Assembly: GCA_036676985.1 (NCBI GenBank)
Contig: JAKFBU010000056.1
Coordinates: 32,001-96,000 of the forward strand
Origin: Candidatus Sericytochromatia bacterium
Lineage (GTDB): Bacteria; Cyanobacteriota; Sericytochromatia; S15B-MN24; UBA4093
Direction: 5' to 3'
Length of the DNA stretch: 64,000 nt
Part shown: positions 1,508 through 42,217 of the stretch, one piece after another
Position numbering within the stretch: position 1 is the first letter of the stretch
How the letters are laid out: the number at the start of each line of letters is the position of its first letter
The notes under the pieces: generated by a model
Told to the model about the DNA's origin: nothing
Seen by the model: only the letters and a program-made list of their open reading frames with translations
Database searches by the model: none
Program-made: the position numbers and the translations under genes

Positions 1508-3361
1508 CTACGGCACGAACGACTCGACGGTGTCCTGGGGCGCGCCTTCGAGGCCGGCGCTGCCGCCGTCCCCTCCGCCCGCGACCACGATGCGTCCGTT
1601 CACGAGGCCCGCCGTCACGTAGCCGCGCGCCCGGCGCAGGGGCGGCTTGATGGCCCACCGCCCGGTCACCGGATCGAACACCTCCACCGAGTTGAGGGGG
1701 ATGCCCCCGATGGTGCAGCCGCCGATCACGTAGATCTTGCCGTTCGCCGCGACCGCCGCCGCCCCGCCGCGCGCCGTGGGCATGGCGGGCTCCAGCCGCC
1801 ACTGCCCGTTGGCATCCGCGCTCTCGACGGCGTTGGAGGGGAACTGGACGTAGGAGCCCGCGAAGTCCGAGAACTCTTGGCCACCGAAGGCGTAGATCCG
1901 GCCAGCCTGCACGACGGTGGCCATGTCGCCGCGCGCGACGTTCAGACCGGTCGGCAGGGTAGCCCACGTGTTGGCGGTCGGATCGTAGCGGAAGCTCTCG
2001 GTGGCGTTGAACTCGGCCGAGAAGTCCCGGTCGTAGGCTGTGTTGCTCTCGGGATAGCTCCCATACGGCCCCCACGAGGCGTCCCGGAAGCCGCCCACCA
2101 GGTAGAGATGCCCGCCGAGGGCCGCCACCGAGGCCCCTCCGCGCGGTACCGGCAGGCTCGGCAGCGTGGACCAGGCACCGCCGTCGAAGCGATAGACGTC
2201 GCGCGCAAGCGCCAGGCCAAACACCCCCGGGCGGATGCCCCCCGCCACGTAGAAGGATCCCCCGAGGCTCGCTCCCTGGGCGTAGCCGAGGACGGCCGGC
2301 AGTCCGGCCTTCTGGGACCAGGACGCGCCATCGTAGGCCCAGACCTGGTTGTGGAAGTAAAGGGAGTCCGTCGCGCGTCGTAGGCCGCCCGCCTGGATCA
2401 GGAGGTCCTCGCCCCCGACGGTCAGCAGGCCGCAGGCACCCGCCATGCCGGCCACGGGCATGGCGCCCTGCACCTGATCGGGCGGCGCGCCCAGGTTCAC
2501 GGACACGGTGGCCGTCTGGTTGGACGTCAGCGTGAGGGAACGGGTGGCCTCGACGCCCATGCCGAGGCTCCGCGCGTGCAGCACCCACGTGCCCGGCGCC
2601 ACCGGCGTCACGCGGTGCGTCCCGTTGTGCAGGGTGACGTTCTTGGGAGAAAGCGGGTCGTCGAGCCAGACGTCTGCCGGAGCCGGTCCCGGGATGCCCT
2701 CCAGCGTCACGTCCAGGGTCGCGGGATAGCGGACGTAGCGCGTCTCGAAGGAGGGCACCCGGCCCGCCAGCTGGATGTCCGCGGCGATCGCCTCCGCGTT
2801 CACGAGCTCGGGATAGACGGCTCCTTGCCGGATCACCGCCTCGACGAGCCCTTGCAGTGCGGCTTCGTTCAGCGTCTCGGCGAGGTGGCGGTCCTGGGCG
2901 CGATCGCCCGCGAGCACCCGCTCGAAGACCATGCCGCGCGGCGTGGTGACCTTGCCGAGGTCGGCCCGAGCCGAGGTGCCCGCGACGATGTCGACGGTGG
3001 TCTTGAGGGTGCCGCCCGGGACCGGGGCCCCCTGCGCGTCGAGGCGGTCCAGGGTCACGATGCGGTTGGGCCCCGCCGGCAGGTTCGAGACGACCAGCGA
3101 GGCGGTGGCCTCGCTGGAGAGGTCGGCCGTCAGGACCACCGGCGCGCTCATGCCGGGTCCGTCCACCGAGAGGCGCGCCCGCGCGGCCGGGGCGGCCCAC
3201 TGGGTGGCGCGTGCTTCGGCGCCGAGGACGAGGCGCACTTCGCCGCGGGCCGTGGAGGGCAGGGTGGTGGAGGTCGTCAGGGCGCGCGGCGTGCAGCCCG
3301 CGAGGCCCACGCAGGCGGCGAGGGTCAGCCAGCCGATTGTCCGAGGGGTGCATGCCGGCAT
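1508..3361 (-). CDS. Kelch-repeat lipoprotein with N-terminal Ig/transthyretin-like domains
   Basis: Lipobox LAGC; C-terminal kelch repeats (GRIYAFGG, GKIYVIGG, VEVFDPVTGRW). Confidence 0.85.
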   Translation of the reverse strand: MPACTPRTIGWLTLAACVGLAGCTPRALTTSTTLPSTARGEVRLVLGAEARATQWAAPAARARLSVDGPGMSAPVVLTADLSSEATASLVVSNLPAGPNRIVTLDRLDAQGAPVPGGTLKTTVDIVAGTSARADLGKVTTPRGMVFERVLAGDRAQDRHLAETLNEAALQGLVEAVIRQGAVYPELVNAEAIAADIQLAGRVPSFETRYVRYPATLDVTLEGIPGPAPADVWLDDPLSPKNVTLHNGTHRVTPVAPGTWVLHARSLGMGVEATRSLTLTSNQTATVSVNLGAPPDQVQGAMPVAGMAGACGLLTVGGEDLLIQAGGLRRATDSLYFHNQVWAYDGASWSQKAGLPAVLGYAQGASLGGSFYVAGGIRPGVFGLALARDVYRFDGGAWSTLPSLPVPRGGASVAALGGHLYLVGGFRDASWGPYGSYPESNTAYDRDFSAEFNATESFRYDPTANTWATLPTGLNVARGDMATVVQAGRIYAFGGQEFSDFAGSYVQFPSNAVESADANGQWRLEPAMPTARGGAAAVAANGKIYVIGGCTIGGIPLNSVEVFDPVTGRWAIKPPLRRARGYVTAGLVNGRIVVAGGGDGGSAGLEGAPQDTVESFVP

Positions 3362-28354: not shown

Positions 28355-29802
28355 GCGGCGCCTCTTTCACGATGCGGAAGGTGCAGGATCACGGCCAGCG
28401 TGAGCCAGAACAGGATCTGGACGCTGGGACGGTAGAAGACGGTGTCGACCATGCCGTGGACGGACAGGCCGACCAGGACGGCGATCGCCGCCGCGCTCCA
28501 GATTCGATCGACCTTGGCGGCGGCCATGTAGAGAGCCCGGAAGATGGCGGCCAGGATGAACCACAGGAAGAGCAGGAGCCCGAAGACCCCCTTCTCGACC
28601 GCCTCCTCCAGGAAGATGTTGTAGGCGCCGAGCGCCTCGAAGCCGCTCACCATGTAGAGGGCGTAGACCTTGCGGAAGGTGTCGTTGCCGAGGCCGATGC
28701 CCGCCCACCACGAGTCCCGGATCATGCGGATCACGCCGTCCCACACGTTGAGCCGAAAGGAGTTGGACGAGTGCGTGCGGGTGGCCGTGATGGACATGAG
28801 GCGCTCCTGGAGCGCCGGGGAGTGCGCGTAGACGAACACCGCGGCCACCACGCCCAAGAGGAGCACCCCGCCCAGGAGGGCCAGGAGCCAGGGCCGGCGG
28901 CGAATGTGCGGCCACAGCGCGAAGAGGCCCAGGACGCCGAGCACGGCGACCTCGGCCACCAGGCCCAGATAGGCCCCGCGCGAGTACGTGAAGTACAAGC
29001 AGATCGGAGCCGCCAGGGCCGTGGCCAGGGCCAGGGCGCGCAGGGCCCAGTTGCGCCAGGTCAGAGCGGCCGCGATCGCGAACGGGATGATCGGGATCAA
29101 GTAGCCCGAGAGCAGGTTGGGGTTGTTGAGCGTCCCGTAGACGCGGGTCAGCTTGACCTCAGCCTCGGCGTCATCCCAGAGAGCCAGGGGCGGCACCTTG
29201 ATCTGCCACTGGTAGATGCCGTAGAGGGATTGAACCAGGGCCGCCACGAAGAGGGCCGCGAACAGGGGCACCCAGCCCCGCTCGCCGCGCCTCAGCGCCC
29301 CGCGAAAGGCCGCGAAGCTCATCCAGAAGACGAGCATCTTGGCGAGACCCTTGAGGCTCAGAACCAGGTAGGGGGAGAAGCCCACCGCCAGCAGGGAGAT
29401 GACGAAGAGGGCGAGAAACGGCAGATCGAGCGCATCCGCCGGCCGCTCGCGCGGGGGCTCGACGGCCCACTGAAAGAGCAGAGACCCGAAGGCCGCCAGG
29501 ACCAGGAGCGCGTTGAGGCCCGTCCCGACGTAGGGGGAGACGAGCAACAGGAGGCACGCGCAGAACAGCGAGAGCGCCGGGGCGAGCCGCGCCGCCCAGG
29601 ACGTCTCCCGCAGCGGCGCAAGCCATGCGTCGAGGCGCCGGCGCCCCGCGCTCACCAATCGATAGGGCGCGCTCTTCCGGACGGCCGCCTGCCATGCGGG
29701 CTGCAGGGAGACCAAGCCGAGGCTCGCGAGGACGCCCAGCAGGGGACGATCGGCGGCGGCCGGACGTGACGCGGGCATGGCTCCTCCCGTGGGTGCGGCC
29801 AT
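28351..29802 (-). CDS. ictB: IctB-like O-antigen ligase/polymerase family membrane protein
   Basis: TRVYGTLNNPNLLSGYL, TYSRG, SSNSFRLNVW, GIGLGN..F.K.Y.LY, VDTVFYRP match cyanobacterial IctB. Confidence 0.8.
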   Translation of the reverse strand: MAAPTGGAMPASRPAAADRPLLGVLASLGLVSLQPAWQAAVRKSAPYRLVSAGRRRLDAWLAPLRETSWAARLAPALSLFCACLLLLVSPYVGTGLNALLVLAAFGSLLFQWAVEPPRERPADALDLPFLALFVISLLAVGFSPYLVLSLKGLAKMLVFWMSFAAFRGALRRGERGWVPLFAALFVAALVQSLYGIYQWQIKVPPLALWDDAEAEVKLTRVYGTLNNPNLLSGYLIPIIPFAIAAALTWRNWALRALALATALAAPICLYFTYSRGAYLGLVAEVAVLGVLGLFALWPHIRRRPWLLALLGGVLLLGVVAAVFVYAHSPALQERLMSITATRTHSSNSFRLNVWDGVIRMIRDSWWAGIGLGNDTFRKVYALYMVSGFEALGAYNIFLEEAVEKGVFGLLLFLWFILAAIFRALYMAAAKVDRIWSAAAIAVLVGLSVHGMVDTVFYRPSVQILFWLTLAVILHLPHRERGAA

Positions 29803-29805
29803 GGG

Positions 29806-30318
29806 CTAGAGCTTGGGCTGGTCGACGAGGCGGACGTCGACGATGGAGCCGCGCAGGCGGTACTTGAAGCCCTCGATGTCGATGGGCACGCCGACCTTGA
29901 CCTTGTTGCCGCCGAGCACGATGGCGTCGTCGGTGATCTGGGCCTTCTCGCGCAGCGTCAACAGCACGTCCTTGCTGTAGGGCTCGGACGGATCGGGATA
30001 GGCCTTGACGCCGCCCGGCACCGGCATGGTGATGGTGCGGGGGGTGACGCGCACCTTGCGGATCGTGAGGGCCGCATAGGGCTGGTTGCGGATGGTGATG
30101 AAGGTCTTCTCACCTTCCTTGAAGATGGCCGGATCGGCGACCCCGCCGCGGATGAAGAGGTCGAACTCGGCCATGGCCTCGCCCTTGAGCTGCTGGTTGA
30201 CCCCGGCCTTGCCCGCTCGAGCGAGGCCCGCTCCCACCAAAAAGGCCACGAGCACCACCACGACCATGAGGTCGAGGGGGTTGACCTTTCCGAACAGGCG
30301 TCCCTGCTGATCAATCAT
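29806..30318 (-). CDS. DUF4330-like protein
   Basis: MIDQQGRLFGKVNPLD, TM helix, IRNQPY, G.KVKVG.P. Confidence 0.75.
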   Translation of the reverse strand: MIDQQGRLFGKVNPLDLMVVVVLVAFLVGAGLARAGKAGVNQQLKGEAMAEFDLFIRGGVADPAIFKEGEKTFITIRNQPYAALTIRKVRVTPRTITMPVPGGVKAYPDPSEPYSKDVLLTLREKAQITDDAIVLGGNKVKVGVPIDIEGFKYRLRGSIVDVRLVDQPKL

Positions 30319-30718
30319 CGATTGAGTCCCTTTCCACCGCCCCTTCGGGGCGTCTTCACCGTACAGACGAGGTCCCATGATGCCGGGTTTCCCCCGAACA
30401 TGCAAGATTGGCCCCGCTTCCGGTGGGCGTCATGGCGGGCCTTCGCGGCCATTGGGGGCGTTCGCGCCGGGGGGAGCGGGGCGGAGATCGAGGCCCGGCA
30501 TACCCATTACGGGTACCGAAATGCAAGCACGCTCACGATTTGCTCACAAGCCATCCATCCTATCAACCCAATCCCTGATGGTTCAGGATCCAAGCAATCA
30601 TTCACAATCCTCACGGCACGTGACCGGAATACCCTCATCCGTGAAAGTTTTATAAACGGCCTGGCGGGGAATACGTGAAGGGACTGCTTGTCTGTTTTGC
30701 ACCAAAGTAGGGGGTCGC

Positions 30719-31726
30719 GTGCGCCTCACACCTGCCGCCCGCCTCTCGACGGGAATCCTGCTCTTCCTGGGCCTGGTCGGATGCCAATGGCTGCCCGTTT
30801 CGAGCGGCTCGCCGGCCGCCGACCTCAGCGGCACGGTGGATTTTGGGGGCGGGCGCCACGCCCAGGCCTCGTTCGACCAGGTGGCGGACGCCGCGACCAT
30901 CTCCCTCATGGAGACGTCGGGCCCGACCTCCACGACCATCGCCTCGACCATCACCCGGCAGGGTGGTCTGTTCAGCCTTTCCATCCCGCGCTTCGTGCCG
31001 GACCCGACCAAGATCTACATCCTCGAGGCCATCAAGGGGCTCTACGGCAACGCCGTGAACAAGGACGCGGCCCGCGTTCGGACGCTCATCCGCTACACCG
31101 ACGGCAGCTGGACCTCGCTGACGAACCTCGTGCCCGGCCCCATCAACCTCGGGGTGGGCTCGACGGCTCTATGCGTCATGTACGGCCTGCGCTCCGGCGA
31201 GGCGACCATCAACCCCGCGGAGCTCATGGGCAGCATCGCCCTAGGCAACGCCGAGGCCCTGCCCCTGCCGGCCGCCGCGGACACCTTCACGCCGCCGGCC
31301 TCGGTCGCGGCGGTCATGACCAAGCAGGACTTCCACACGGTGAGCGACCTGGTCGGGCGCGCGGTGCAGGGCGACTCGGACCCCATCTCCGCGGTGCAGT
31401 ACACGCTGGCGGACGGCTATTTCGTCAAGACGGCCCAGGACCCCTTCATCGACAACCTGAGCTCGACGGCCGCGGGCTACGGCGCTCCGCTCGTCATCAC
31501 GGGCTACCGCTTCGACCCGGTCATCGCCAACAACACCGTCTACTTCGGCGGGCCCACGGGCACCGTCGCTGCCATCGACTCCTCCAAGCCCAACTCGGCC
31601 AACGTCCTGTACGTCACCGTGCCGGAGGGAGCGCCGAGCGGCGTGGTGATGGTGCGCAACGGAACCGGCCTCAGCAACGGCATCCAGTTCACCGTCGTGC
31701 CGCGCATCGGCGGCAAGCTCAACTAG
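30719..31726 (+). CDS. Lipoprotein: conserved N-terminal domain plus one IPT/TIG domain
   Basis: Lipobox LVGC; ATISL...LEAIKGL...RVRTL; IPT pattern ITG..F......V.F...VTVP.GA.SG.V.V. Confidence 0.8.
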   Translation: MRLTPAARLSTGILLFLGLVGCQWLPVSSGSPAADLSGTVDFGGGRHAQASFDQVADAATISLMETSGPTSTTIASTITRQGGLFSLSIPRFVPDPTKIYILEAIKGLYGNAVNKDAARVRTLIRYTDGSWTSLTNLVPGPINLGVGSTALCVMYGLRSGEATINPAELMGSIALGNAEALPLPAAADTFTPPASVAAVMTKQDFHTVSDLVGRAVQGDSDPISAVQYTLADGYFVKTAQDPFIDNLSSTAAGYGAPLVITGYRFDPVIANNTVYFGGPTGTVAAIDSSKPNSANVLYVTVPEGAPSGVVMVRNGTGLSNGIQFTVVPRIGGKLN

Positions 31727-31739
31727 TCCGGAGGCCCCG

Positions 31740-34121
31740 ATGAACGCCCTGACCCGACTCCTCGTCGCCTCCGTGAGCATCGTGCTGCTTGCCTGCAACC
31801 CCTTGCCCGTGCAGCTGACGGCCTCGAAGCCGGTGCCACGTGACGCCGAGAGTCAGACCCAGCCGATCTCCAGGGCCCACGCCCTGGAGGGGAGCGTCGC
31901 GTTCGACGCCGGCACCCGCGACACCCAGGCGATCTCGGGCGACGTCGTCAACCTCGCGACCATCTCCCTCATCGACACCACCGCGGCCCAGACCCGGGCC
32001 TCGGGCATCACGGATGCCAGCGGCCGCTTCTCACTGCCGTTCTCGAGTTACGTCCCGCCCGTCGGCCAGACCTTCGTCCTCGAGGCGGTCAAAGGACTCA
32101 ACTCGCAGCTGCCCGGCAATGAGGCGCCTCGCTTCCGGACCCTCGTCAAGTACACGGCCACGGGCTGGCAGTCGATCACCAACGGCACGGCCCCCGGCAA
32201 CATCGTCATCAACGCGCTGACCACCGCCATCGCCCTCGTCTCGGGCCTGGATCAGGCCAACGTCCCCTACGGCAACACCATGGGCATGGTCAACGCCGCG
32301 GTCAACCCGCCCGCCCTCAACGCCGCGCCGACTTTCGCCGCCCACCCGAGCATCGAGCTCATCAACCTGAGCAACGACGTGCTCGCCTTGCTCAACCACA
32401 ACCTGGACCCGGTGGCCAACACGCCCGCCATCAAGCCCTCGCTCGCGGCCGTCACCCCGAGCACGGCCGCGGCGAACCTGCCCGTGGTCATCACGGGCTC
32501 GGGCTTCGTCCCGGGCGGTACCACCGTGACCATCGGCGGGGCCACCGCCGCGGTGATGGCCATGTCGAGCACCCGGATCGTGGCGGCCGTCCCGGCCGCC
32601 GCCATCACGGGCACCGTGACCGTCACGACCACCCGGGGCGGCACCAGCAACGCGATCGCCTTCACCAGCCCGGACGGCTCGGCGGTCGCCATCACGACCA
32701 TCAGCCCCAACCCGGCCCGCCCCGGTCAGACCGTCACGATCGCGGGCCAGGGCTTCAGCGGGGTGATCGGCAACAACGACGTCCGCCTCAACGGCCAGGC
32801 GATCGTTCCCATCTTCGCCAACGAGTCGAGCCTCGTCATCAACCTGCCCACCGACAGCACGAGCGGCAACGTCTCGGTGACGGTGGCCGGCGCCAAGAGC
32901 AACAACTTCTTCCTGACGCTGGACGTGCTCGCCACGCCCATCATCACCTCGCTCTTCCCGAACACCGGGGCCGTCAAGAGCATCCTCTCCATCAAGGGAT
33001 CCAACCTGGGCCCCACGGGCAAGGTCGTCATCGGCGGCTACCAGGCCAAGGTCGTCTCCTGGAGCCCCAAGGTGGTCCGCGTCGAGGTGCCCGTCAACGT
33101 CAACCCGGGCGCCACCACCGTCACGGTGTTCGCGCCCCTGGGCGTCGCCACCACCACCTTCACGGTGCTCGCGGGCGACGCCGGGGCCAACTTCATCTCC
33201 GTGGCCCCCATGGTCTCCACGGGCGGCATGGGCATGTACGCCTGGGTCGGGGACGGCAAGCTCTGGACCTGGGGGGGCGGCGACTCCACGGCCGTCAACT
33301 ACATCAACCTGAACGCCGACGGCAGCTTCAAGGATGCCAACTGGTCCGTCTCCTCCATGACCCTGCCCTACGGCACCAACCAGGACGACAACCCGAACGG
33401 CGCGGTGCAAGTGAAGAACCGGGTCTACTACACCGTCTCCAACTCCAGCAACAAGATCAACTTCGCCACCCTGGATCCCTACTCGGGGGACGTGACGGGC
33501 TTCGGCTACGATCCGACCAACGACCTGCCGCCCACCTGGCTCGGCAAGGACCTGGCCCTGGCCGCGAGCGACAAGTATGTCTACATCCTGGGTCAGGGCG
33601 TCAGCTGCTCGAGCGCCCTGGGCGGCACGGGCTGCGGCGGCCGCGCCACGACCACCATGCAGACCCGCATCCTGCCCTCGGGCGGCATCGGCATCTGGTC
33701 GACGGGCCCGGACACCCTCTACTACGGCGAGGACGCCATGCCGCTCTATATCGGCGGCGTGCTGCACCTCATCGGCGGCAACGACAGCGCGGCGGTGGGC
33801 TCGCAGTACTCGGTCATCAAGGCCGACGGCACCATGGGCGGCTGGGTGAAGAACTCGACGCCCCTCATCTCGGGCAACCCCCTCTCCAACCAGATGACCC
33901 GCATCGGGCGCTACTACTACATGTTCGAGTACAGCGGCCGGACCCTGCGCGGCCAGATCATCGACGATCTGGTGCCCAAGCCCCTGGAGACCTATCCCAC
34001 GACCTCGCCGACGCTCGGCTACTACCGGATCACGATTCCCATCGGCAAGTACGTCTACCAGCTCGGAGACAACACGGGCACCGCCACCCAGCGCAGCGTC
34101 TGGCGCTGCACCCTCAACTAG
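31740..34121 (+). CDS. Lipoprotein: N-terminal domain, 3 IPT/TIG domains, C-terminal propeller-like domain
   Basis: Lipobox LLAC; three IPT repeats; kelch-like blades (LWTWGG, YVYILG, LHLIGG). Confidence 0.8.
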   Translation: MNALTRLLVASVSIVLLACNPLPVQLTASKPVPRDAESQTQPISRAHALEGSVAFDAGTRDTQAISGDVVNLATISLIDTTAAQTRASGITDASGRFSLPFSSYVPPVGQTFVLEAVKGLNSQLPGNEAPRFRTLVKYTATGWQSITNGTAPGNIVINALTTAIALVSGLDQANVPYGNTMGMVNAAVNPPALNAAPTFAAHPSIELINLSNDVLALLNHNLDPVANTPAIKPSLAAVTPSTAAANLPVVITGSGFVPGGTTVTIGGATAAVMAMSSTRIVAAVPAAAITGTVTVTTTRGGTSNAIAFTSPDGSAVAITTISPNPARPGQTVTIAGQGFSGVIGNNDVRLNGQAIVPIFANESSLVINLPTDSTSGNVSVTVAGAKSNNFFLTLDVLATPIITSLFPNTGAVKSILSIKGSNLGPTGKVVIGGYQAKVVSWSPKVVRVEVPVNVNPGATTVTVFAPLGVATTTFTVLAGDAGANFISVAPMVSTGGMGMYAWVGDGKLWTWGGGDSTAVNYINLNADGSFKDANWSVSSMTLPYGTNQDDNPNGAVQVKNRVYYTVSNSSNKINFATLDPYSGDVTGFGYDPTNDLPPTWLGKDLALAASDKYVYILGQGVSCSSALGGTGCGGRATTTMQTRILPSGGIGIWSTGPDTLYYGEDAMPLYIGGVLHLIGGNDSAAVGSQYSVIKADGTMGGWVKNSTPLISGNPLSNQMTRIGRYYYMFEYSGRTLRGQIIDDLVPKPLETYPTTSPTLGYYRITIPIGKYVYQLGDNTGTATQRSVWRCTLN

Positions 34122-34137
34122 CGCCGACGAGCCGGAG

Positions 34138-36555
34138 ATGCGCGCGATGAAGAAACTCTTGACCCTCGCCCTGGTGGGCTTCCTGAGCACCGGGCTCTAT
34201 GCCTGCCGCTTTCCGGGCCCGGCGGCCACGCCCACGGCCACCGGGACGTCCGTCGCGGCCAACGCGGCCCTGGCCTCGGTCCTGCGCGGCACGGTGGACT
34301 TCTCGAGCCTGCGATCGAGCCAGGCCGTCCCCGGGGACATCACCAACCAGGCGACCATCGCGCTGATCGACGCCATCTCGGGCGAGACCCGCACCTCGAC
34401 GATCACGGACGCCACGGGCAACTTCACGCTGAGCATGCCGGGCTTCAACCCGGTGCTCAACGGGACCTACGTCCTCGAGGCCACCAAGGGCCTGTTCGCC
34501 CAGCTTCCGGGCAACGTCGCGCCGCGCTTCCGGACGCTCGTGCAGTACACGGCCTCCGGCTGGAAGTCCCTGACGAGCGCCACGGCCGGCGGCGCAAGCG
34601 CCATCAACGCCCACACCACGGCGGTCGCCATCGTCTCGGCCCTGGATCCCATCGGCCTGCCGCCCGGCAACGCCATGGGCAAGGTGAACCCCACCCCGCC
34701 GGGCAGCCTGAATGCGAGCCCCGCCTTCCCCACGCACCCGGACGCCGAGCTGAACGCGCTCGCGACGGACATCGTCAACACCCTGAGCCAGGACCAGGAC
34801 CCCGTCGCCAGCACCAACGCCGTCAAGCCCACCCTCATGGGCATGACGCCCACGACGGCCGCCGTGGCCCAGCCCATCACGCTCACGGGCACGGGCTTCG
34901 TCGCGGGCGGGACGACCGTCAAGGTCGGGGCGGCCACCATCCCGGGCTCCAACGTCCTGCTGGTCACCAAGAGCCAGATCATCTTCACGATCCCCGCGGG
35001 CATCACCACCGGCAACGTCACGGTCACGACCGCCCGGGGCGGCGTGAGCAACGGCATCCCGCTCAGCATCCCCAACTCGGCGGCGGTCTCGGTGGCGGCC
35101 ATCAGCCCCAACCCGGCCCGGCCCAACGCCTCGGTCACGGTCACGGGCACCGGCTTCAGCACCACGCCGGCCGCCAACACCATCACGGTCAACGGCACCA
35201 GCGTCACGCCCGACTTCGCCAACCAGACGTCCCTGGTGTTCCGGGTCCCCTCCAGCGCCGTGAGCGGCAACGTCACGGTGACCGTCGGCGGCCAGACCAG
35301 CAACCAGTACTACCTGACCGTCGAGTCGCTCACCACGCCCCAGATCACGAGTCTCTTCCCGAACGTGCTGCCCACCAAGGCGGTGCTCGCCATCAAGGGC
35401 CAGAACTTCGGGCCGGACGGCTCGGTGCTGGTCGGCGACTACCAGGCCAAGATCATCTCGTGGAGCCCCAACATCATCCGCGTGGAGGTGCCCTGGTACG
35501 TCCCGCCCGGCTCGGCGGTGGTCACGGTCTTCGCGCCCCTGGGCATCACCACCCAGAACGTCACGGTCCTCGAGGCGGGGACCATCAGCCCCTGGGCCAA
35601 GGTCACGGACCTGCCCGGCGACGTGGGCGGCCTCGGCGTCCACGCCTACGTGGGCGGCGAGAAGCTCTGGGTCTGGGGCGGCAACGGCTCCACCAAGGTC
35701 TACTACATGAACCTGAACGCCGACGGCAGCTTCAAGGACGCCGCATGGACGGCCGCACCCTTCAGCCTGCCCGAGGGCACGTACCAGGACGACAACCCCA
35801 ACAGCCGCACGCAGATCAAGAACCGCATCTACTACACGGTCACCAACCAGCTGACGGCCTCGAACAGCAACCACGTCAACTTCGCCTCCCTGGATCCCTA
35901 CACCGGGGACATCACGGGCTTCGCCTACGACCCCATCAACGACCTGCCGCCCACCTGGGTGGGCAAGGACCTGGGCCTCATCGCCGGGGACAAGTACGTC
36001 TACATCATGGGCCACGGCGTCAGCTGCTCGGGCAACGGCGTCAACTGCAACGGCAACCCGGTGGGAACCATGCAGGCCCGCATCCTCGAGTCCGGCAACA
36101 TCGGCCAGTGGGAGATCGGGCCCAACCAGCCGCAGACCTACGGAGAGGACGGGGCTCCCTTCATCATCGGCGACTCGCTGTTCCAGGTCGGCGGCACGGC
36201 CGGCGTCTCCATGCAGTGCGTGATCAACGAGAACGGACAGATGTCGAGCTGGGCGACCATGTCCGTTCCGCTCATCCCGAACGGCGAGTTGCTGTCCACC
36301 CAGGTCATGAAGATCGGACACTACTACTACCTCTTCAACATGTGGAGCAGCCAGCGCTCGTTCCGAGGAGCGATCGTCGACGACCTGGTACCCAAGCCGG
36401 CGGTCGAGCTGCTGGCCAACACGCCCCTGTCCCAGGGCGTCGCGTGCGGCATCGGCCATGTCGACGTGCAGGTCGGCAAGCACCTCTACCTCATCAGCAC
36501 CCACTCGGGCGGCTACGGCGGCACGCAGAACGTCGTGCGCGGCACGATCCAGTAG
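34138..36555 (+). CDS. Lipoprotein paralogue of 31740-34121
   Basis: Lipobox LYAC; collinear similarity (QDDNPN, LDPY.GD.TGF.YDP.NDLPPTW.GKDL). Confidence 0.8.
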   Translation: MRAMKKLLTLALVGFLSTGLYACRFPGPAATPTATGTSVAANAALASVLRGTVDFSSLRSSQAVPGDITNQATIALIDAISGETRTSTITDATGNFTLSMPGFNPVLNGTYVLEATKGLFAQLPGNVAPRFRTLVQYTASGWKSLTSATAGGASAINAHTTAVAIVSALDPIGLPPGNAMGKVNPTPPGSLNASPAFPTHPDAELNALATDIVNTLSQDQDPVASTNAVKPTLMGMTPTTAAVAQPITLTGTGFVAGGTTVKVGAATIPGSNVLLVTKSQIIFTIPAGITTGNVTVTTARGGVSNGIPLSIPNSAAVSVAAISPNPARPNASVTVTGTGFSTTPAANTITVNGTSVTPDFANQTSLVFRVPSSAVSGNVTVTVGGQTSNQYYLTVESLTTPQITSLFPNVLPTKAVLAIKGQNFGPDGSVLVGDYQAKIISWSPNIIRVEVPWYVPPGSAVVTVFAPLGITTQNVTVLEAGTISPWAKVTDLPGDVGGLGVHAYVGGEKLWVWGGNGSTKVYYMNLNADGSFKDAAWTAAPFSLPEGTYQDDNPNSRTQIKNRIYYTVTNQLTASNSNHVNFASLDPYTGDITGFAYDPINDLPPTWVGKDLGLIAGDKYVYIMGHGVSCSGNGVNCNGNPVGTMQARILESGNIGQWEIGPNQPQTYGEDGAPFIIGDSLFQVGGTAGVSMQCVINENGQMSSWATMSVPLIPNGELLSTQVMKIGHYYYLFNMWSSQRSFRGAIVDDLVPKPAVELLANTPLSQGVACGIGHVDVQVGKHLYLISTHSGGYGGTQNVVRGTIQ

Positions 36556-36570
36556 CGAGAAAAGGACGGC

Positions 36571-37155
36571 ATGATGCCCTTCTCTACCCATCACTCGATC
36601 CCCCGAGGAGTCGCCGCGGGCATGCTGATGCTCAGCCTCGCCCTGTGGGGTTGCAGCGGGGACGAACTGACGGGCGTCTCCGGAGGGACCGGCGCCAAGA
36701 AGTCGCCCACCCCCACGCCCACCGAGCTTCTGGGCGGGGTCGGGCCCGGCGGCTCGGCCACCCCGACGCCCACGCCCACGCCGACCCCGTCGCCCACCCC
36801 GAGCAACGGCCTCGCGCCCGACCCCGATCCGACGCCCTTCGCCATCGGCATCACCGTCGCGCTCCAGGACGACACCATCAACCTGGCCCCGTACGACGGC
36901 GGACCCGGGCTCTACCGCTACACTACCCACGTGTCGGGGGTCGTCACGCTGAGCAACGCGCTCACCACCACCGACATCGACTGGCGCTCGTCCAACAACG
37001 CGATCGCCTCGGTGGCGAGCGACGGGACGATCACGGCCGGCTCGGTCGCGGGCGGCACGGTCAAGATCACCGGCACCTCCAAGGACGGCCTGGTCTCCAA
37101 GTCCGTCGATCTCACCGTGACCGCCTTCGGCGACGCCGAAGTCGTCGTCGACTAG
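36571..37155 (+). CDS. Lipoprotein with PT linker and Ig-like (Big_2) domain
   Basis: Lipobox LWGC; WRSSNNAIASVASDGTITA...ITGTSKDG. Confidence 0.8.
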   Translation: MMPFSTHHSIPRGVAAGMLMLSLALWGCSGDELTGVSGGTGAKKSPTPTPTELLGGVGPGGSATPTPTPTPTPSPTPSNGLAPDPDPTPFAIGITVALQDDTINLAPYDGGPGLYRYTTHVSGVVTLSNALTTTDIDWRSSNNAIASVASDGTITAGSVAGGTVKITGTSKDGLVSKSVDLTVTAFGDAEVVVD

Positions 37156-37164
37156 GGAGGCCCC

Positions 37165-38133
37165 ATGCGTCAGCTCACGCTCACCCTCACGGCCCTGTCG
37201 GCCCTCGTCTTCCTGGTGGCCTGCGACCAGGCCTCCGTGCCGTCGGCGGCGGACCCGTCCGCAGGGTCTCCTGCGGCCCTCGAGGACACCCGGACGGGCG
37301 CGGTCTCCCTGCGGGTCAAGTGGCCCGAGCGCACGACCCAGTACATCCCGGAGACGGCCGAGACGATCGTCTTTGGGATCTACAAGCCGGGCATCACGGC
37401 CCCCCTCGCGACCGCGAGCCTCACCCGGCCCGCGAGCGAGCTCTCGCTGCCGCGGCTGCCCATCGGCTCTCTGCGCTTCACGGCGGACGCCCAGGATCCC
37501 GACGGCACCGTCGGGGCGAGCGGCAGCGCCACGGTGACCATCCTGCCCAACGCGACGGTCTCGGTGCCCCTGCACCTGATCTCGGCGCTTCCTGCCCCCA
37601 CCGTCACCGGCTTCAGCCCGTCCAATGGCGTGCCGGGCCAGCAGGTGACGGTCTCGGGCACGAATTTCGGGGCGAGCCGGAACACCCCCTTTGCCATCCA
37701 GTACGGCAACACGACCCTGCCCGGCGATCGGATCTTCCGCCTCAGCGACAGCCAGCTCGCCTTCTTCGTGCCGACCGGCGCCGTCAACTCCACCTTCTCG
37801 GTGACGGTGGGCCCGCACACGGTCGCTTCGACCGCCGCGTTCCAGGTCATCGCCACCGTCTCCGTCACGCCGAGCGCCGTCGCCCTCGACGCCTCCACCC
37901 AGCAGGTCACGCTCACGGTGACGGCCAAGGACGCGGCGGGCTTCGTCATCCCCTCGCCCGTCCTGCCCTGGAACACGCTCAGCGAGAACAAGGCGGGATG
38001 GGGGACGGGCGACCCGCTCCTGTTCTTCAACGGCTCGACCCGGGTGGTCTCGCGCGGGACGGCGACGGGCTCGGCCCTGATCGGCATCGGCCTGACGCCG
38101 ACGCTCGCCACCGTCTCCGTCACGGTGGACTGA
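37165..38133 (+). CDS. Lipoprotein with Ig-like and IPT/TIG domains
   Basis: Lipobox LVAC; PTVTGFSP..G.PGQQVTVSGTNFG. Confidence 0.8.
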   Translation: MRQLTLTLTALSALVFLVACDQASVPSAADPSAGSPAALEDTRTGAVSLRVKWPERTTQYIPETAETIVFGIYKPGITAPLATASLTRPASELSLPRLPIGSLRFTADAQDPDGTVGASGSATVTILPNATVSVPLHLISALPAPTVTGFSPSNGVPGQQVTVSGTNFGASRNTPFAIQYGNTTLPGDRIFRLSDSQLAFFVPTGAVNSTFSVTVGPHTVASTAAFQVIATVSVTPSAVALDASTQQVTLTVTAKDAAGFVIPSPVLPWNTLSENKAGWGTGDPLLFFNGSTRVVSRGTATGSALIGIGLTPTLATVSVTVD

Positions 38134-40100
38134 TGCGCCTCCGTGATACGACCTGGGGCGCCTGGCTCGGCGCCCTCCTGCTCGCGAGTTCGATTGCCGC
38201 CTGCCACTCGACTCAGCTCGTGCCTCTCGGCTCGCCGCCCGGCGGCGCCACGGGTGCGACCGTGACCCAGTCGCCCCGCAGCTTCGGCCAGCTCTCCATG
38301 ACCATTCGCTGGCCCCGGCAGGTGCAGTACATCCCCGTGAGCGCCACGCGCATCGAGTTCAAGGCCTTCGTCGGCGAGAACCCCGTGCCCTACGCCACCC
38401 AGACGGCGACCTCTCCGGGCGTGGGCGGCACGAGCACGGTCAGATTCGAGGCCTTGCCGGCGGGCGAGGTCGTCATCGTCGCGAGCGCCAAAGATGCCGC
38501 CGACCAGGTCGTGGCCGCGGGCAGCATCCGGCTTGCGATCGTCGCAAACGACCTGGTGCGCGGGGCCCTGACGCTGCAATCGACCACCGAGCCGCAGATC
38601 ACGACCTTCGTGCCCCAGGCCGCCGATCCAGGCAGCGAGGTGCACCTGTTCGGGAGCCACTTCGGAGACGAGCCGGGCCGCAACGCGACGTACTCCGTAT
38701 GGGTCGGGGGGCTCGTGGCCCCGAGCGCCACGCTCGTCGACGACGGCACCCTGCGCTTCATCGTCCCGGAAGGGGCCACCAACAGCCTCGTGACCCTGCG
38801 GGTCGACGCGCTGGCGACCCGGAGCGCCCAGGTCTTCACCACGATCCGCGCGTGGACGCTCTCGCCCTCGTCGGCCGAGGTCTTCGTGCCCTACGGCACG
38901 CAGGACTTCGCGGCCACGGCCCGCGACCACGCGGGGGTTCCGGTCGAGACCCCGCCCAGCGACAGCTGGTCGGTGGTGACGGTGAGCGGAGCCACGGGGG
39001 CATCGGTCGTCCTCGAGTCGGACGAGGACGGCTCAGAGCCGTCCGAGCTCGGGGTCGAGTTCCGGGCCCCCGAGGGTCTCGGCACCTACCAGGTCCGGAT
39101 CGGGAAGGGCTCGGCCGCCAAGACCGCGACCGTCACGACCCATCCCATGACCTTCGCGGACTTCGATGACCGGCTGGGGATCCTGCCCGCGGCGGCAAAC
39201 CCCGCGGACAATCCCACGAGCCCCGAGAAGGTCGCCCTCGGCAAGCGGCTCTTCTTCGACTCGGGCATCGGCTCCAACGGCCAGATGTCCTGCGCCAGCT
39301 GCCATCAGCCGGACAAGGGCTGGAGCGACGGGCGCAAGACGTCGCTCGGCAACGACGGCCAGCCCCTCGAGCGCAACTCGCCGACCATCCTCAACGCGGG
39401 GCTCGACGGGCGTGGGCTGATGTTCTGGGACGGGCGGGCGGCCACGCTCGAGGACCAGGCGCGCCAGGTGTTCGGCAACGCCCGCGAACTCAACCGAACG
39501 GGCGATCAGCTGCGTACCTACCTGACGGGCGCCGGATACCAGGCGAGCTTCTCGGCGGTTTTCGGCCCGGCGGGCCTTTCGGACGGCACCACGACCATGG
39601 ACCAGGTGACCAAGGCGATCGCCGCCTTCGAGCGGACGGTCATGACCCAACAGAGCGCCTTCGACCGCTGGGCCGAAGGTGACGCCGGCGCGCTCGGAGC
39701 TGCCGAGAAGCGGGGCCTCGGCGTCTTCGCCACCCGCGGCCGCTGCATCGAGTGCCACAGCGGGCCCATGTTCACGGACGAGAAGTTCCACAACATCTCG
39801 GTCTTCGAGCCCCTGGGGGTCCTCAACCCGGGTCGCAAGGCAGTCACCGGTGCCGCCGGAGACCTCGGGGCCTTCAAGACGCCGACCCTCCGGAACATCG
39901 AGGAGACGGGGCCGTACTTCCACAACGGGTCGGTCGCGAACCTGACGGACGTGATCCTCCATTATGAGGGCGAGTTCGAGGAGACGCCCAACATCGACCC
40001 GTTGCTGGCCGAGCCCATCCAGATCTCGGCCCAGGACCGGGAGGACCTCATCGCCTTCCTGCGGGCGCTCTCGGGCGCCACGCCGAGCGTCACGCCGTGA
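38133..40100 (+). CDS. Lipoprotein: Ig/IPT domains fused to a di-haem cytochrome c peroxidase (bCcP/MauG superfamily)
   Basis: Real start is the ATG at 38133 (TGATG overlap); lipobox IAAC; LGKRLFFD, CASCH, RNSPT, FWDGR, CIECH, FKTPTLRN, PYFHNG. Confidence 0.88.
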   Translation: MRLRDTTWGAWLGALLLASSIAACHSTQLVPLGSPPGGATGATVTQSPRSFGQLSMTIRWPRQVQYIPVSATRIEFKAFVGENPVPYATQTATSPGVGGTSTVRFEALPAGEVVIVASAKDAADQVVAAGSIRLAIVANDLVRGALTLQSTTEPQITTFVPQAADPGSEVHLFGSHFGDEPGRNATYSVWVGGLVAPSATLVDDGTLRFIVPEGATNSLVTLRVDALATRSAQVFTTIRAWTLSPSSAEVFVPYGTQDFAATARDHAGVPVETPPSDSWSVVTVSGATGASVVLESDEDGSEPSELGVEFRAPEGLGTYQVRIGKGSAAKTATVTTHPMTFADFDDRLGILPAAANPADNPTSPEKVALGKRLFFDSGIGSNGQMSCASCHQPDKGWSDGRKTSLGNDGQPLERNSPTILNAGLDGRGLMFWDGRAATLEDQARQVFGNARELNRTGDQLRTYLTGAGYQASFSAVFGPAGLSDGTTTMDQVTKAIAAFERTVMTQQSAFDRWAEGDAGALGAAEKRGLGVFATRGRCIECHSGPMFTDEKFHNISVFEPLGVLNPGRKAVTGAAGDLGAFKTPTLRNIEETGPYFHNGSVANLTDVILHYEGEFEETPNIDPLLAEPIQISAQDREDLIAFLRALSGATPSVTP

Positions 40101-40630
40101 GGGGCGGCGGCGCGTGGGCCGTGCTCCTCGCCCTGGGGCTGATCGGCTGCGTGCCGGGCCGCACCCAGGTCGAGCCGCTCGGCGATGAGGCCTTCGTGCT
40201 GGACGGGCAGATCGTCTTTCCACGCTCCGAGCCCACCCCCACGCCGGCGCCCAATCTCGCGACGCCCACGCCGCAGCCGACCAGCGCCCCGGGAGACGGG
40301 ACCTACGTACCCTTCGCGGTGCAGGTGGTGGTGACGAGCGACCACCCGGATCTCAACGTGGCGCCACCCCCGGGCAAAGCCGCCATCTACCGTGACCAGA
40401 CCTACGTGGCGGCGCAGGTGACCATGAGCAACGGCTACAGGAACAACCAGGTCACCTGGGAGTCCTCTCGCCCGGACATGGTCCGGGTCGACGCGTTCGG
40501 CAACGTCACGGCCACCGGCTCTCAGGCCGGGTGGGCCACCATCACCGCCACCTCCAAGGATGGCAAGGCCTCAGGCTCGGTGATCCTGCAGGTCACCAAC
40601 CATGGGGATGCGGAGCTGGTCGTCGAGTAG
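40097..40630 (+). CDS. Lipoprotein with PT linker and Big_2 domain; paralogue of 36571-37155
   Basis: Lipobox LIGC; VTWESS...RVD..G.VTA...ATITATSKDG; ends GDAELVVE. Confidence 0.8.
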   Translation: MRGGGAWAVLLALGLIGCVPGRTQVEPLGDEAFVLDGQIVFPRSEPTPTPAPNLATPTPQPTSAPGDGTYVPFAVQVVVTSDHPDLNVAPPPGKAAIYRDQTYVAAQVTMSNGYRNNQVTWESSRPDMVRVDAFGNVTATGSQAGWATITATSKDGKASGSVILQVTNHGDAELVVE

Positions 40631-40659
40631 GCGAGCCCGGAAGGCCGCATCACGTGCGC

Positions 40660-40697
40660 AAAAAAAGTCCGCGGAGTGAACACTCCGCGGGCTCTTT
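40660..40697. terminator. Bidirectional terminator
   Basis: A-run, agtccgcggagtg-aa-cactccgcgggct, then cttt, between convergent genes. Confidence 0.75.
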
Positions 40698-40709
40698 GTG
40701 GCGCGATCG

Positions 40710-41192
40710 CTAGATGTGGGCGGACTCGCCCTCGATGATTCGCTCGATGATGGACGTGGTCGAGCGGCCCTCGACGAAGGGCAGCACCACGACCTCGCCG
40801 CCCAGGCTCCGCACCAGGGGCGTCTCGGGGATGGTGTCGGGCTCGTAGTCCCCGCCCTTGACGTAGAGCTGGGGTCGAACGGCCTCGATGGCCCGGTCCG
40901 CCGTGCGCTCGTCGAAGATGACGACGGCGTCCACGCACTTGAGCGCGTCCATGAGCTCGGCCCGCTCGTCCTCGGGGAGGATGGGGCGCGCGGGGCCCTT
41001 CAGCTCGCGGACCGACCGGTCGGAGTTGAGGCCGACGACGAGGCGATCGCCCAGCTCGCGAGCCGCCTGCAGGTAACGCAGGTGCCCCACGTGCAGCAGG
41101 TCGAAGCAGCCGTTGGTGAAGACGGTCTTGCCGCCCTGGGCCTCCCACTCGGCGACGAGCGGAGCGATGGAGTCGACGGTATGGATGCTCAC
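40710..41192 (-). CDS. hldC: ADP-heptose synthase adenylyltransferase (RfaE domain II)
   Basis: [37 protein letters not shown]; GTG start overlapping the upstream stop. Confidence 0.9.
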
Positions 41193-42217
41193 GAGCGCAC
41201 TCCCTGGATGCTCGCCGCATCCTGCTTGGCGAGGGCGTCGGCCAGCTCCTCGACGGTGGTGGTCGCCGTGCCGAAGCGCCGGACGACGATGGAGGCCGCG
41301 AGGTTCGCGAGCAGCGTCGCCTCGACGGGCGAGGCCCCGCCCGCAAGTGCCAGCGTGAGCGTACCCACCACCGTGTCGCCCGCCCCCGTCACGTCGAAGA
41401 CCTCCGTGCGGTTGAAGGCGGGGATCTGGGTGACGGTGCCGTTGGCCTCGAAGATCGCGATGCCGTTCGCGCCCCGGGTGATGAGGACGTTCTGCGCGCC
41501 CGTCTCCGCCAGGAGGATGCGGCCGGCCTCCATGAGGGTGGCCTCGTCCGTGATGGCGAAGCCCACGTTGGCCTCGGCCTCGGGCTGGTTGGGCGTCACG
41601 GCCGCAACGCCGGGGAAGAGGCGCAGGTCGCACTGGGCGTCGACCGTCACGAGCTTGCCGTGGACCTTGGCCAGCTCGAGAATCTTGGCGATGACCCGCG
41701 GGGTGAAGAGCCCGTTGCCGTACTCGGAGACAAGGATGCCGTCCACCTGCGGGATCTTGGCCTCGAGGGCCGCGAAGACCTGGGCCTCGATCTCGGCGCT
41801 GATGGGCTCGCGGCTCTCGCGGTCCACGCGCACGATCTGCTGGGTGACCGACTGCTGGCTCGCGGCCGAGATGCGGGTCTTGGTGGTGGTGGGGCGACTC
41901 GGGTCGACGACCACGCCCGACGAGTCGATGCCCCGCTCGCTGAGGGACTTGGCGAGCGCCACGCCCGAGGGATCGTCGCCGAAGAGGCCGATCACCTGCA
42001 CCTGGGCGCCGAGGCTCGCCATGTTGGCCGCGGCGTTGGCCGCGCCGCCCGGCACCACGTCCGTGTGCTGGTGGTAGAGGACCAGGACCGGGGCCTCGCG
42101 CGAGATGCGGCCGACCTGTCCGGTCAGGAACTCGTCGGCGATGAGGTCGCCGACAACGAGCAACCGGGTCTGGGCGAAGCCCCGGGTCAAGCGGGATAGG
42201 GTTTGCGTGTCGAGCAT
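41189..42217 (-). CDS. hldA: Heptose-7-phosphate kinase (RfaE domain I)
   Basis: [29 protein letters not shown]. Confidence 0.9.

Follow-up and report, generated by a model that had tools for sequence, protein, structure and literature searches.

Seven lipoprotein genes form one operon

We analysed a 64,000-nucleotide stretch (the window) of the genome of a Candidatus Sericytochromatia bacterium (assembly GCA_036676985.1, contig JAKFBU010000056.1, positions 32,001 to 96,000 of the forward strand). Candidatus Sericytochromatia are the non-photosynthetic sister group of cyanobacteria. Within positions 30719-40630, the window carries seven plus-strand genes, g1 to g7, which either overlap (g5/g6 by 1 nt, g6/g7 by 4 nt) or are spaced by at most 16 nt. 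An earlier reading of the letters alone, hereafter the original prediction, had proposed that these genes encode a surface system of lipoproteins polymerising in the manner of type V pili, by donation of β-strands between subunits. The data presented below support, in silico, strand donation between two kinds of protein encoded in the operon, called T and class B, the former being a putative tether and the latter a putative cargo carrier.

As originally proposed, all seven products have a signal peptide and a lipobox Cys. The lipoboxes are, from g1 to g7, LVGC, LLAC, LYAC, LWGC, LVAC, IAAC and LIGC. Pfam searches identified IPT/TIG domains in g1, g2, g3 and g5, Big_2 in g4 and g7, and CCP_MauG in g6. 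At E values up to 0.01, the full list of families for the seven proteins is TIG, Big_2, aBig_2, CCP_MauG, Cytochrom_C and RoxA-like_Cyt-c. The strands, R-x-x-Q motifs and tails described in this section had been read correctly in the original prediction.

The products of g1 to g3 belong to class A, whose first strand is of the L-x-G-x-V type; in all three, it precedes an Arg and a Gln. The short class A lipoprotein g1 (30719..31726, 335 residues, lipobox C22) has LSGTVDF as strand 1 (residues 36-42, nt 30824-30844), followed by GGG-RHAQ with R46..Q49 at nt 30854-30865. Its transthyretin-like N-domain, which extends to about residue 145, is followed by a middle domain of helical structure; the protein continues with a TIG domain (243-326) and ends in a free tail, PRIGGKLN (328-335, nt 31700-31723). 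The long class A lipoproteins g2 (31740..34121, 793 residues, C19) and g3 (34138..36555, 805 residues, C23) each contain three TIG domains and a C-terminal domain without Pfam match, and both are devoid of a tail. Strand 1 is LEGSVAF in g2 (49-55, nt 31884-31904), followed by DAGT-RDTQ (R60..Q63, nt 31917-31928), and LRGTVDF in g3 (49-55, nt 34282-34302), followed by SSL-RSSQ (R59..Q62, nt 34312-34323).

The class B lipoproteins are g5 (37165..38133, 322 residues, C20), the proposed acceptor, and g6 (38133..40100, 655 residues, C24). In g5, strand 1, GAVSLRVKW (45-53, nt 37297-37323), leads into PE-RTTQYIP, with P54 and then R56..Q59 (nt 37330-37341); the N-domain ends at about residue 143 and precedes a TIG domain and a Big_2-like domain. 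In g6, strand 1, GQLSMTIRW (52-60, nt 38286-38312), leads into P-RQVQYIP (R62..Q65, nt 38316-38327); behind these come Ig-like domains, and the protein ends in a di-haem cytochrome c peroxidase (CCP_MauG, E 4.1e-48). A kelch-repeat lipoprotein encoded outside the operon (1508..3361, minus strand, lipobox LAGC) is a distant relative with GEVRLVLG-AEA-RATQ near its N-terminus; it was not picked up by the class B hidden Markov model (HMM).

The two T proteins are g4 (36571..37155, 194 residues, lipobox C28), the proposed donor and tether, and g7 (40097..40630, 177 residues, C19). Both consist of a Pro/Thr-rich linker and a Big_2 domain (residues 91-184 in g4), with an extra C-terminal strand, FGDAEVVVD in g4 (186-194, nt 37126-37152) and HGDAELVVE in g7 (169-177, nt 40601-40627). 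The g7 protein also has, directly after the lipobox (residues ~33-43), an orphan strand FVLDGQIVF-PR which fits the class A pattern L-x-G-x-V-x-F followed by Arg. Behind it lies the Pro/Thr linker instead of a class A domain. A homologue search with g7 returned two proteins, g7 itself and its orthologue P0015 at 49% identity, which keeps the orphan strand as YVLWGQIVLP; the paralogues of g7 came from the HMM search of the genome. This orphan strand might serve as another donor, at the N-terminus, or might be a leftover of recombination.

Three protein families recur in the genome and in the class

Families A, B and T were defined by iterated HMM searches over the six-frame open reading frames (ORFs) of the 4.68-Mb genome, in which g1 alone has 48 matches. 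The genome holds 45 class A N-domains, which are transthyretin/CarboxypepD_reg-like, 33 class B N-domains of the 'RWP-x-R..Q-x-IP' type, and 26 T domains. A protein was assigned to T if its lipobox was followed by a Pro/Thr-rich linker and by one or two Big_2 domains, with an extra strand past the last Big_2 strand. The three families add up to 97 ORFs, which fall into about 37 clusters; a lipobox was recognised by pattern in 92 of these ORFs. The operon is thus one of many clusters of genome- and class-wide modules, and the idea of a single seven-gene system is not supported. Families as large as these are typical of adhesin or binding-protein expansions, which favours the view, weighed below, that their members are independent lipoproteins.

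A class B N-domain starts at most 400 nt downstream on the same strand in 15 of the 18 ORFs ending in a T-type domain. One of these 15 T-B pairs, in which the T partner has an ordinary last strand and no extra one, was set aside, leaving 14. The T to B order was also found for 16 of the 19 T ORFs in loci from other Sericytochromatia genomes, and its maintenance across genomes argues against proteins that would have nothing to do with one another. T genes also occur upstream of long class A genes, on contigs C23, C42 and C1. As for class A, a short gene adjoins a long one at C41, C53, C51 and in the window, and the short-to-long order recurs in relatives, for example at loci L001, L002, L006, L009, L013, L014 and L017, as would suit a pilus with g1-type subunits. 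Two of these loci, L006 and L013, are syntenic with the window, and L006 encodes peroxidase-bearing class B proteins too. Donor and acceptor features are found together in a 141-residue protein of contig C39 and in the 'BT' proteins of C23, which could chain.

A profile of whole g5-like proteins had matches in 46 of the 47 genomes of the class, those in the more distant families possibly covering the TIG part only. The class B N-domain profile, searched against 1.84 billion representatives, matched 2818 clusters at 50% identity with E values up to 0.001, and 747 with E values up to 1e-10. The best 148 clusters were examined: 124 of them contain the complete domain close to the N-terminus, with a lipobox in 110 of the 124. 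Where these relatives carry a name, it is 'IPT/TIG domain-containing', 'Bacterial Ig-like domain (group 2)' or 'hypothetical'.

Two further features of the families were observed. Class A proteins of about 1100 residues share a C-terminal ending, G-L-x-x-P-[E/D/M/L]-[L/F], in the forms KIGLMAPEL, FGLMQPRF, VGLQQPDF, FGLGGPEL, KVGLNSPMF, KVGLVAPLF and KLGLVTPEL. It occurs in the own genome (G000) at C23:314283-320996, C50:47400-54075, C62:2100-5579 and C69:2086-5475, and in a relative at L005:2419-5904, and is the third type of C-terminal motif conserved in these families. In addition, the clusters at C56:254449-263446 and C74:183-7375 of the same genome have the same order, three to four class A genes (~625 residues) followed by class B. 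Their C-termini are near-identical, and the class B proteins of both end in SPEPAAAVGGETAL. Either a recent duplication or the presence of two strains or haplotypes in the assembly (contamination 5.09%) would account for this pair.

The T tails mimic strand 1 of the class B domain encoded downstream

T proteins end in φ-T-φ-T-φ-x-x-G-x-φ-x-φ-x-φ-[E/D/Q] (φ, hydrophobic residue), and class B domains start with G-x-φ-x-φ-x-φ-R-W-P. The eight C-terminal residues of each T protein were compared, with BLOSUM62, to the eight residues that open the class B domain downstream. The 30 T-B pairs available (14 from the own genome, 16 from elsewhere) were reduced to 24 (14 and 10) by removal of near-duplicates. 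Aligned in register, tail and strand 1 scored +1.22 per position, as compared to +0.13 for the best other forward shift and +0.66 for the best reversed alignment. Therefore, the likeness exceeds what the alternating pattern of any β-strand would give.

The likeness is also specific to the partner. The cognate pairs summed to a score of 183, as compared to 125.6 ± 16.8 with shuffled partners (z 3.41, p ~0.0007). Permutation of the 14 own-genome pairs alone gave p 0.0065, and at shifts of ±2 no signal was observed. This dependence on register and partner is difficult to reconcile with tails that would be vestigial strands or linkers of independent proteins. Moreover, tail and strand 1 are alike rather than complementary, which suggests that both occupy the same site and argues against a tail that binds without proteolysis.

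Several results weigh against strand complementation by the T tails. Permutation of the 10 other-genome pairs alone gave p 0.06. Because the T-B pairs are related by descent, the permutation p-value is too small. The g4/g5 pair of the window itself scored 0 and ranked 18 of 24; the orthologous pair in a genome of the same family (L074) ranked first, with a score of 12. Finally, in one T paralogue (L062, C42:2451-3179 of the own genome), a tail-like DGELDLSV runs into a further domain (TPALSLNE...). The T tails may thus be leftover first strands of lost Ig domains, as the view of independent lipoproteins would have it. Against this, the T tails stay at the extreme C-terminus, with their Gly and their terminal acidic or polar residue, among paralogues that are only about 25% identical. 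The E, D or Q that terminates most T proteins would suit a tail bound through its end, as considered below.

In class A, the corresponding tails are PRIGGKLN in g1 and V-G-G-T-F, L-A-G-S-F, F-S-G-T-F, L-D-G-R-M and similar in relatives. They share φ-x-G-x-φ with the L-x-G-x-V start of the domain, a likeness limited to three positions. A tail is lacking altogether in four short class A proteins, which are of the GPW...TVT type. The g1-type combination of an acceptor domain with a conserved free tail, φ-G-G-x-φ, matching the domain start is what a pilus subunit would require; the small number of shared positions and the tail-less paralogues speak against it. Sorting signals and GG-type leader-like motifs were also considered as possible readings of the tails.

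Modelled docking of the g4 tail in the groove of truncated g5

In the AlphaFold2 model of g4 (13 relatives), the Big_2 domain (91-184) was predicted with a pLDDT above 90, and the tail (185-194) with a pLDDT of ~50 and no secondary structure. The g1 tail behaved similarly (pLDDT 53 for the last block of the model). Folding of the tails into their own domains, which the original prediction had named as refuting it, is hence seen for neither tail in these models.

As the pair with the strongest genomic link, g4 and g5 were chosen for modelling. The chains were g5 57-322, cut after R56 (19-row alignment), and g4 88-194 (13-row alignment). Three runs of g4:g5(57-322) gave ipSAE interface scores of 0.68, 0.72 and 0.68, as compared to 0.00 for the best of three controls. 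In the calibration, which covered 80 solved complexes and 110 mismatched pairs, 58 of the former and 2 of the latter reached this mark; since alignments supplied by ourselves were used, this calibration holds roughly. The runs shared at least 97% of contacts, with a partner pLDDT of at least 92. Docking on g5 truncated at its R-x-x-Q, which the original prediction had called for, was thus obtained in the model, and independent lipoproteins would not lead one to expect a complex that beats the controls.

The modelled interface comprises residues 185-194 of g4, plus loops 104-109, 113-115, 117 and 158-159, and residues 61, 68, 70, 72, 84, 91-100, 103, 105, 107, 124 and 126-138 of g5. The g4 tail runs antiparallel to g5 93-100 (98 with 186-189, 95 with 188-189, 100 with 185-187) and parallel to g5 126-134 (126 with 187-189, 131 with 188-189, 134 with 189-191). 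In the other sheet, two strands contribute the alternate, inward-facing residues that it covers, I68, F70 and I72 on one and L103, F105 and A107 on the other. In the transthyretin fold, which consists of sheets DAGH and CBEF, strands A and G are parallel. We take the position and direction of the modelled tail to be those of strand A in a transthyretin-type sheet. This direction agrees with the forward, in-register likeness found independently in the sequences. The tail lies over the hydrophobic core and not at an edge, contrary to binding by edge addition, strand 1 being absent from this model by design.

Two features of the design count against reading too much into the complex. Because strand 1 of g5 was removed before modelling, the groove was offered to the tail. 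In addition, the three control proteins were unrelated and had no comparable free strand. Overall, the prediction on truncated g5 supports binding, and the g4 tail may fill the groove vacated by g5 strand 1. As for strand complementation in general, the free tails, the transthyretin-like fold of class A, the docking and the T/B co-variation speak for the original idea, whereas the null likeness score of the g4/g5 pair of the window does not.

The class A N-domain has a transthyretin-type fold

The AlphaFold2 model of g1 (43 aligned relatives) had a mean pLDDT of 85.7. In it, strand 1 spans residues 36-40 and a short helix residues 52-57; the sandwich reaches about residue 145 and is followed by a helical domain and the TIG domain (243-326). 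Residues 41-50, which include R46 and Q49, have a pLDDT of 65. Structural comparison of residues 34-145, strand 1 included, with VIA-align (N-domain matches spanning residues 31-149) gave 3e8v (Z 9.1, rmsd 2.5, 79 aligned), the transthyretin-like YedX 2igl (Z 7.8, rmsd 4.2, 103 aligned), the transthyretin-like 4pwe (Z 7.0, rmsd 4.2, 99 aligned) and carboxypeptidase D domain II, 1qmu (Z 6.9, rmsd 2.7, 75 aligned). In line with this, Pfam CarboxypepD_reg (PF13620) was matched by 14 of 43 class A members, with a best E value of 8.7e-5. The class A N-domain is a seven-stranded prealbumin-like sandwich with a φ-x-G-x-φ first strand. Since the structural matches and the CarboxypepD_reg matches agree, the 'first strand' of class A can be equated with strand 1 of a transthyretin-type sandwich. 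In the model, R..Q sits in an enlarged β1-β2 connection.

The fold is thus common to CarboxypepD_reg and other transthyretin-like domains. Class A differs from CarboxypepD_reg by an extended β1-β2 loop with [R/Y]-x-x-Q-A and a short helix, by its constant position after a lipobox and a linker, and by its pairing with a tail that copies the strand.

The TIG domain of g1 resembled those of Bacteroides lipoproteins: 3tc9 (Z 12.4, rmsd 1.6, 85 aligned), 7k44 (Z 10.2, rmsd 2.2, 82 aligned) and 6d2y (Z 9.1, rmsd 2.6, 82 aligned). These bind nutrients or glycans, and the likeness favours the view of independent lipoproteins. A Foldseek search of the PDB with the complete g1 model yielded TIG and immunoglobulin matches for the most part and was uninformative on the N-domain. 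Type V pilins were not among the 50 VIA-align matches listed for g1, which excludes nothing. For the g5 N-domain, the best score in the ESM Atlas was 0.85, below the meaningful level. Homology between the class A and class B N-domains received no support from hhalign (probability 2.7%, E 0.017); in that alignment, strand 1, R..Q and strand 2 are matched in the same order.

The Gln is better conserved than the Arg

Among the g1 orthologues (alignment A1), R46 is found in 12 of 12 sequences, and Q49, A50 and the tail residue G332 in at least 90%. The g5 orthologues have R56 and Q59 in 8 of 8, and R56 persists in all 19 class B orthologues and paralogues. The conservation of R-x-x-Q on which the original prediction depended therefore holds among orthologues, and the invariance of R46 is also what a pilus subunit would show. 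It does not extend to the class A paralogues of the genome, where R..Q is present in 20 of 45, and an R one to three residues from the Q in 27 of 45. A basic residue is present in the loop of 36 of these 45 paralogues. The Q and the A that follows it are each found in 38 of 45, and G38 in 44 of 45.

In the 124 class B representatives, 'WP' is invariant (124/124) and Q-x-[ILV]-P is found in 106. An Arg stands at most three residues after WP in 87, and the loop from WP to Q counts 3-13 residues. Judging from the aligned sequences, the constant unit of class B is strand 1-W-P-x-R, a variable loop, and Q-x-I-P.

An exposed variable loop following a frequent Arg fits a processing site. Opposing this, a basic residue is absent from the loop of 9 of the 45 class A paralogues, Tyr occupies the Arg column in 14 of them, and 37 of the 124 class B representatives have no Arg within three residues of WP. 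Thus, the anchor strand with its Arg loop is kept in orthologues and is not universal among class A or class B paralogues. As Q is kept better than R, and R is replaced by Tyr or Phe, a structural role fits as well. Retention of Q and A in the many paralogues that have lost the Arg would be expected if R..Q were a structural clasp of the β1-β2 connection in independent lipoproteins. The Arg also lies just past the position where the T tail would end, as would a residue that binds the tail.

As to the protease, Peptidase_C25 (PF01364, gingipain type) had no match in the genome, but was silent in all 14 control genomes too. This would suit a mechanism without proteolysis, though given the silent controls it says little. 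An S8 subtilase lipoprotein (LVGC) is encoded at 58922-60178 on the minus strand, 18 kb from the operon. It had been suggested as the maturase; nothing was found that links it to the system.

Relation to known strand-exchange systems

According to a 2026 cryo-EM paper (PMC13655056), type V pilins are lipoproteins whose domains are transthyretin-like; they have an anchor strand, an Arg in the β1-β2 loop and C-terminal donor strands, the anchor subunit has no cleavage site, and these pili are called unique to the class Bacteroidia. Set against type V pili as outlined there (FimA/Mfa1 stalk, FimB/Mfa2 anchor, tips), the operon shares lipoprotein precursors, a transthyretin-like sandwich whose first strand follows the lipidated Cys, an Arg in the next loop, and a C-terminal strand that is free to leave its own protein. 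Donor-only members (T, anchor-like) and acceptor-only members (B, g2 and g3, tip-like) are found here as well. As far as that source describes type V pilins as transthyretin-like, the transthyretin-like fold of class A is no argument against a pilus-like reading.

The differences are no less clear. Donor strands are carried here by TIG or Big_2 domains, and some members bear large enzymatic or propeller cargos. A single sandwich (g1 34-145; in g4 the Big_2 domain alone) is found in place of the N- and C-terminal domains of the pilins outlined in that source. Polymerisation is not open to the T:B pair, some members lack the Arg, and the host belongs to the Cyanobacteriota (Sericytochromatia) rather than to Bacteroidia, to which the same text confines type V pili. 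No FimA/Mfa pilin family was matched by the seven operon proteins with Pfam at E values up to 0.01, and no pilin family was listed for 43 class A members at E values up to 1. Without a pilin match, with one sandwich instead of two and with a host outside Bacteroidia, the proteins do not qualify as type V pilins. If the proposed mechanism holds, it would be a new, non-homologous variant of donor-strand assembly.

In chaperone-usher pili, an incomplete Ig-like fold is completed by a strand of another polypeptide. There, the donor is an N-terminal extension, the groove corresponds to a missing last strand, and assembly depends on a chaperone in the periplasm and an usher in the outer membrane. 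In contrast, the donor is C-terminal here, the first strand would be the one replaced, and all the parts are lipoproteins. The Bacteroides proteins of the SusE/F-like, SGBP-B and BT_3476 kind are likewise lipoproteins, with an IPT/TIG or Ig stalk and a propeller or binding domain. We know of no strand-mimicking tail, paired tether gene, or RWP-x-R..Q-x-IP or L-x-G-x-V..R..QA N-domain in these glycan-binding lipoproteins. No SusC/D family was found among the 15 window proteins scanned with Pfam.

As to novelty, the original prediction knew of no such description in this lineage, and in open listings and abstracts we found no paper on such a system, either for Sericytochromatia or cyanobacteria or among work on type V pili outside Bacteroidetes. 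To our knowledge, strand complementation after proteolysis of lipoprotein precursors has been described only for type V pili.

A proposed tether-cargo module as the best explanation

Our best explanation is that the operon combines two kinds of two-part lipoprotein module which recur throughout Sericytochromatia genomes. The computational results, which cover the lipoprotein nature of the products, their folds and free tails, the adjacency of the genes, the co-varying strand mimicry and docking against controls, support donor-strand complementation in T:B pairs. The proteolysis, the stoichiometry, the cellular location and all assembly of class A proteins are inferred. In the first module, the putative tether T comprises a lipid anchor, a long Pro/Thr linker, one Big_2 domain and an unpaired C-terminal strand, and is encoded just upstream of B. 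The putative cargo protein B opens with an N-terminal β-sandwich whose first strand has the same pattern, followed by W-P-x-R and the variable loop. By analogy with type V pilins, a cut at the conserved Arg would initially detach the first strand of B together with its lipid anchor. The T tail would then replace this strand, parallel to the last strand of the domain and over its hydrophobic core, and the cargo of B (Ig domains, propellers or di-haem peroxidase) would hang from the long linker of T. Since T has no acceptor domain and B no donor tail, a T:B heterodimer is likelier than a fibre. The polymer of the original prediction would thus shrink to a 1:1 unit, both features meeting only in g1-like short class A proteins.

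The class A products g1 to g3 would form a parallel module. Proteins of the g1 type, with their transthyretin-like acceptor and φ-G-G-x-φ tail, could chain together or onto g2 and g3, the long members that bear cargo. With g1 linking them, the class A genes may amount to another set, perhaps one that polymerises.

Taken as a whole, a modular tether-cargo system working by donor-strand complementation, in which T holds class B, probably after a cut at the Arg, is the reading we favour, tentatively, with chances that we put just short of even. Strand complementation is plausible; pilus, surface location and cleavage are conjectural. Di-haem peroxidases are usually periplasmic, and with such an enzyme as one of the cargos, a surface system is not supported. 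A bolder version, which we consider improbable, holds that Sericytochromatia evolved, apart from Bacteroidia, a protease-primed donor-strand exchange in which T proteins capture cut B proteins, g1 forms fibres tipped by the propeller-bearing g2 and g3, and dozens of tethered enzymes or binders are built from interchangeable, co-evolving pairs.

The strongest alternative is that these are ordinary, independent multi-domain lipoproteins, arising from a lineage-specific expansion of envelope proteins of the Ig-like 'stalk plus cargo' type, akin to the SusE/F-type or BT_3476-type lipoproteins of Bacteroides. The tails would then be vestigial Ig first strands or linkers, R..Q would clasp the β1-β2 connection, and T and B would be adjacent merely through joint duplication. 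The likeness to Bacteroides binding proteins, the Arg replacements, the extended L062 tail and the family sizes are on its side. The persistence of the tails at the extreme C-terminus, their register- and partner-specific likeness to strand 1, the scores of the complex and the constant T to B order make it unlikely, though we take it seriously.

Alternatively, the T tail might bind B without proteolysis, either by addition at the edge or by displacing a strand 1 that remains attached. The Arg would then clamp the terminal carboxylate or acidic residue of the tail, in a PDZ-like manner, rather than mark a cut. The acidic or polar T termini and the place of the Arg are consistent with this mechanism; the sequence likeness, which puts tail and strand 1 at one site, and the modelled position over the core make it a rather distant prospect. 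The least probable reading, a true type V-like pilus in which g1 polymerises head to tail, g2 and g3 are tips and T or uncleaved members are anchors, is very doubtful in view of the short tail likeness, the tail-less paralogues, the single sandwich and the lack of any Pfam pilin match.

If the tether-cargo system is real, the same assembly principle would have arisen more than once, here in a non-homologous system of uncultured cyanobacterial relatives. It would also give a function to a very large unannotated family, that of the 2818 class B clusters, and a natural set of specific strand-groove pairs usable as protein connectors.

Surroundings of the operon

A promoter scan of 30000-41300 found 0 sigma-70-like sites where 0.5 were expected, and the 5 terminator-like sites of the same region are no excess over the 3.9 found in shuffles. 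Between g7 and the kinase gene that converges on it there is a terminator-like hairpin (40669-40690). Envelope-sugar genes flank the operon on both sides (27263-30405 and 41189-42217, both on the minus strand). Their products are a family 9 heptosyltransferase, an O-antigen-ligase-like Wzy_C protein, a DUF4330 protein and a PfkB-type sugar kinase. Farther downstream, the minus-strand ORF 42251-43339, listed with a TTG start, contains release-factor-like SPF and GGQ motifs. Its true N-terminus may be encoded in a different frame, as happens with the programmed frameshift of prfB.

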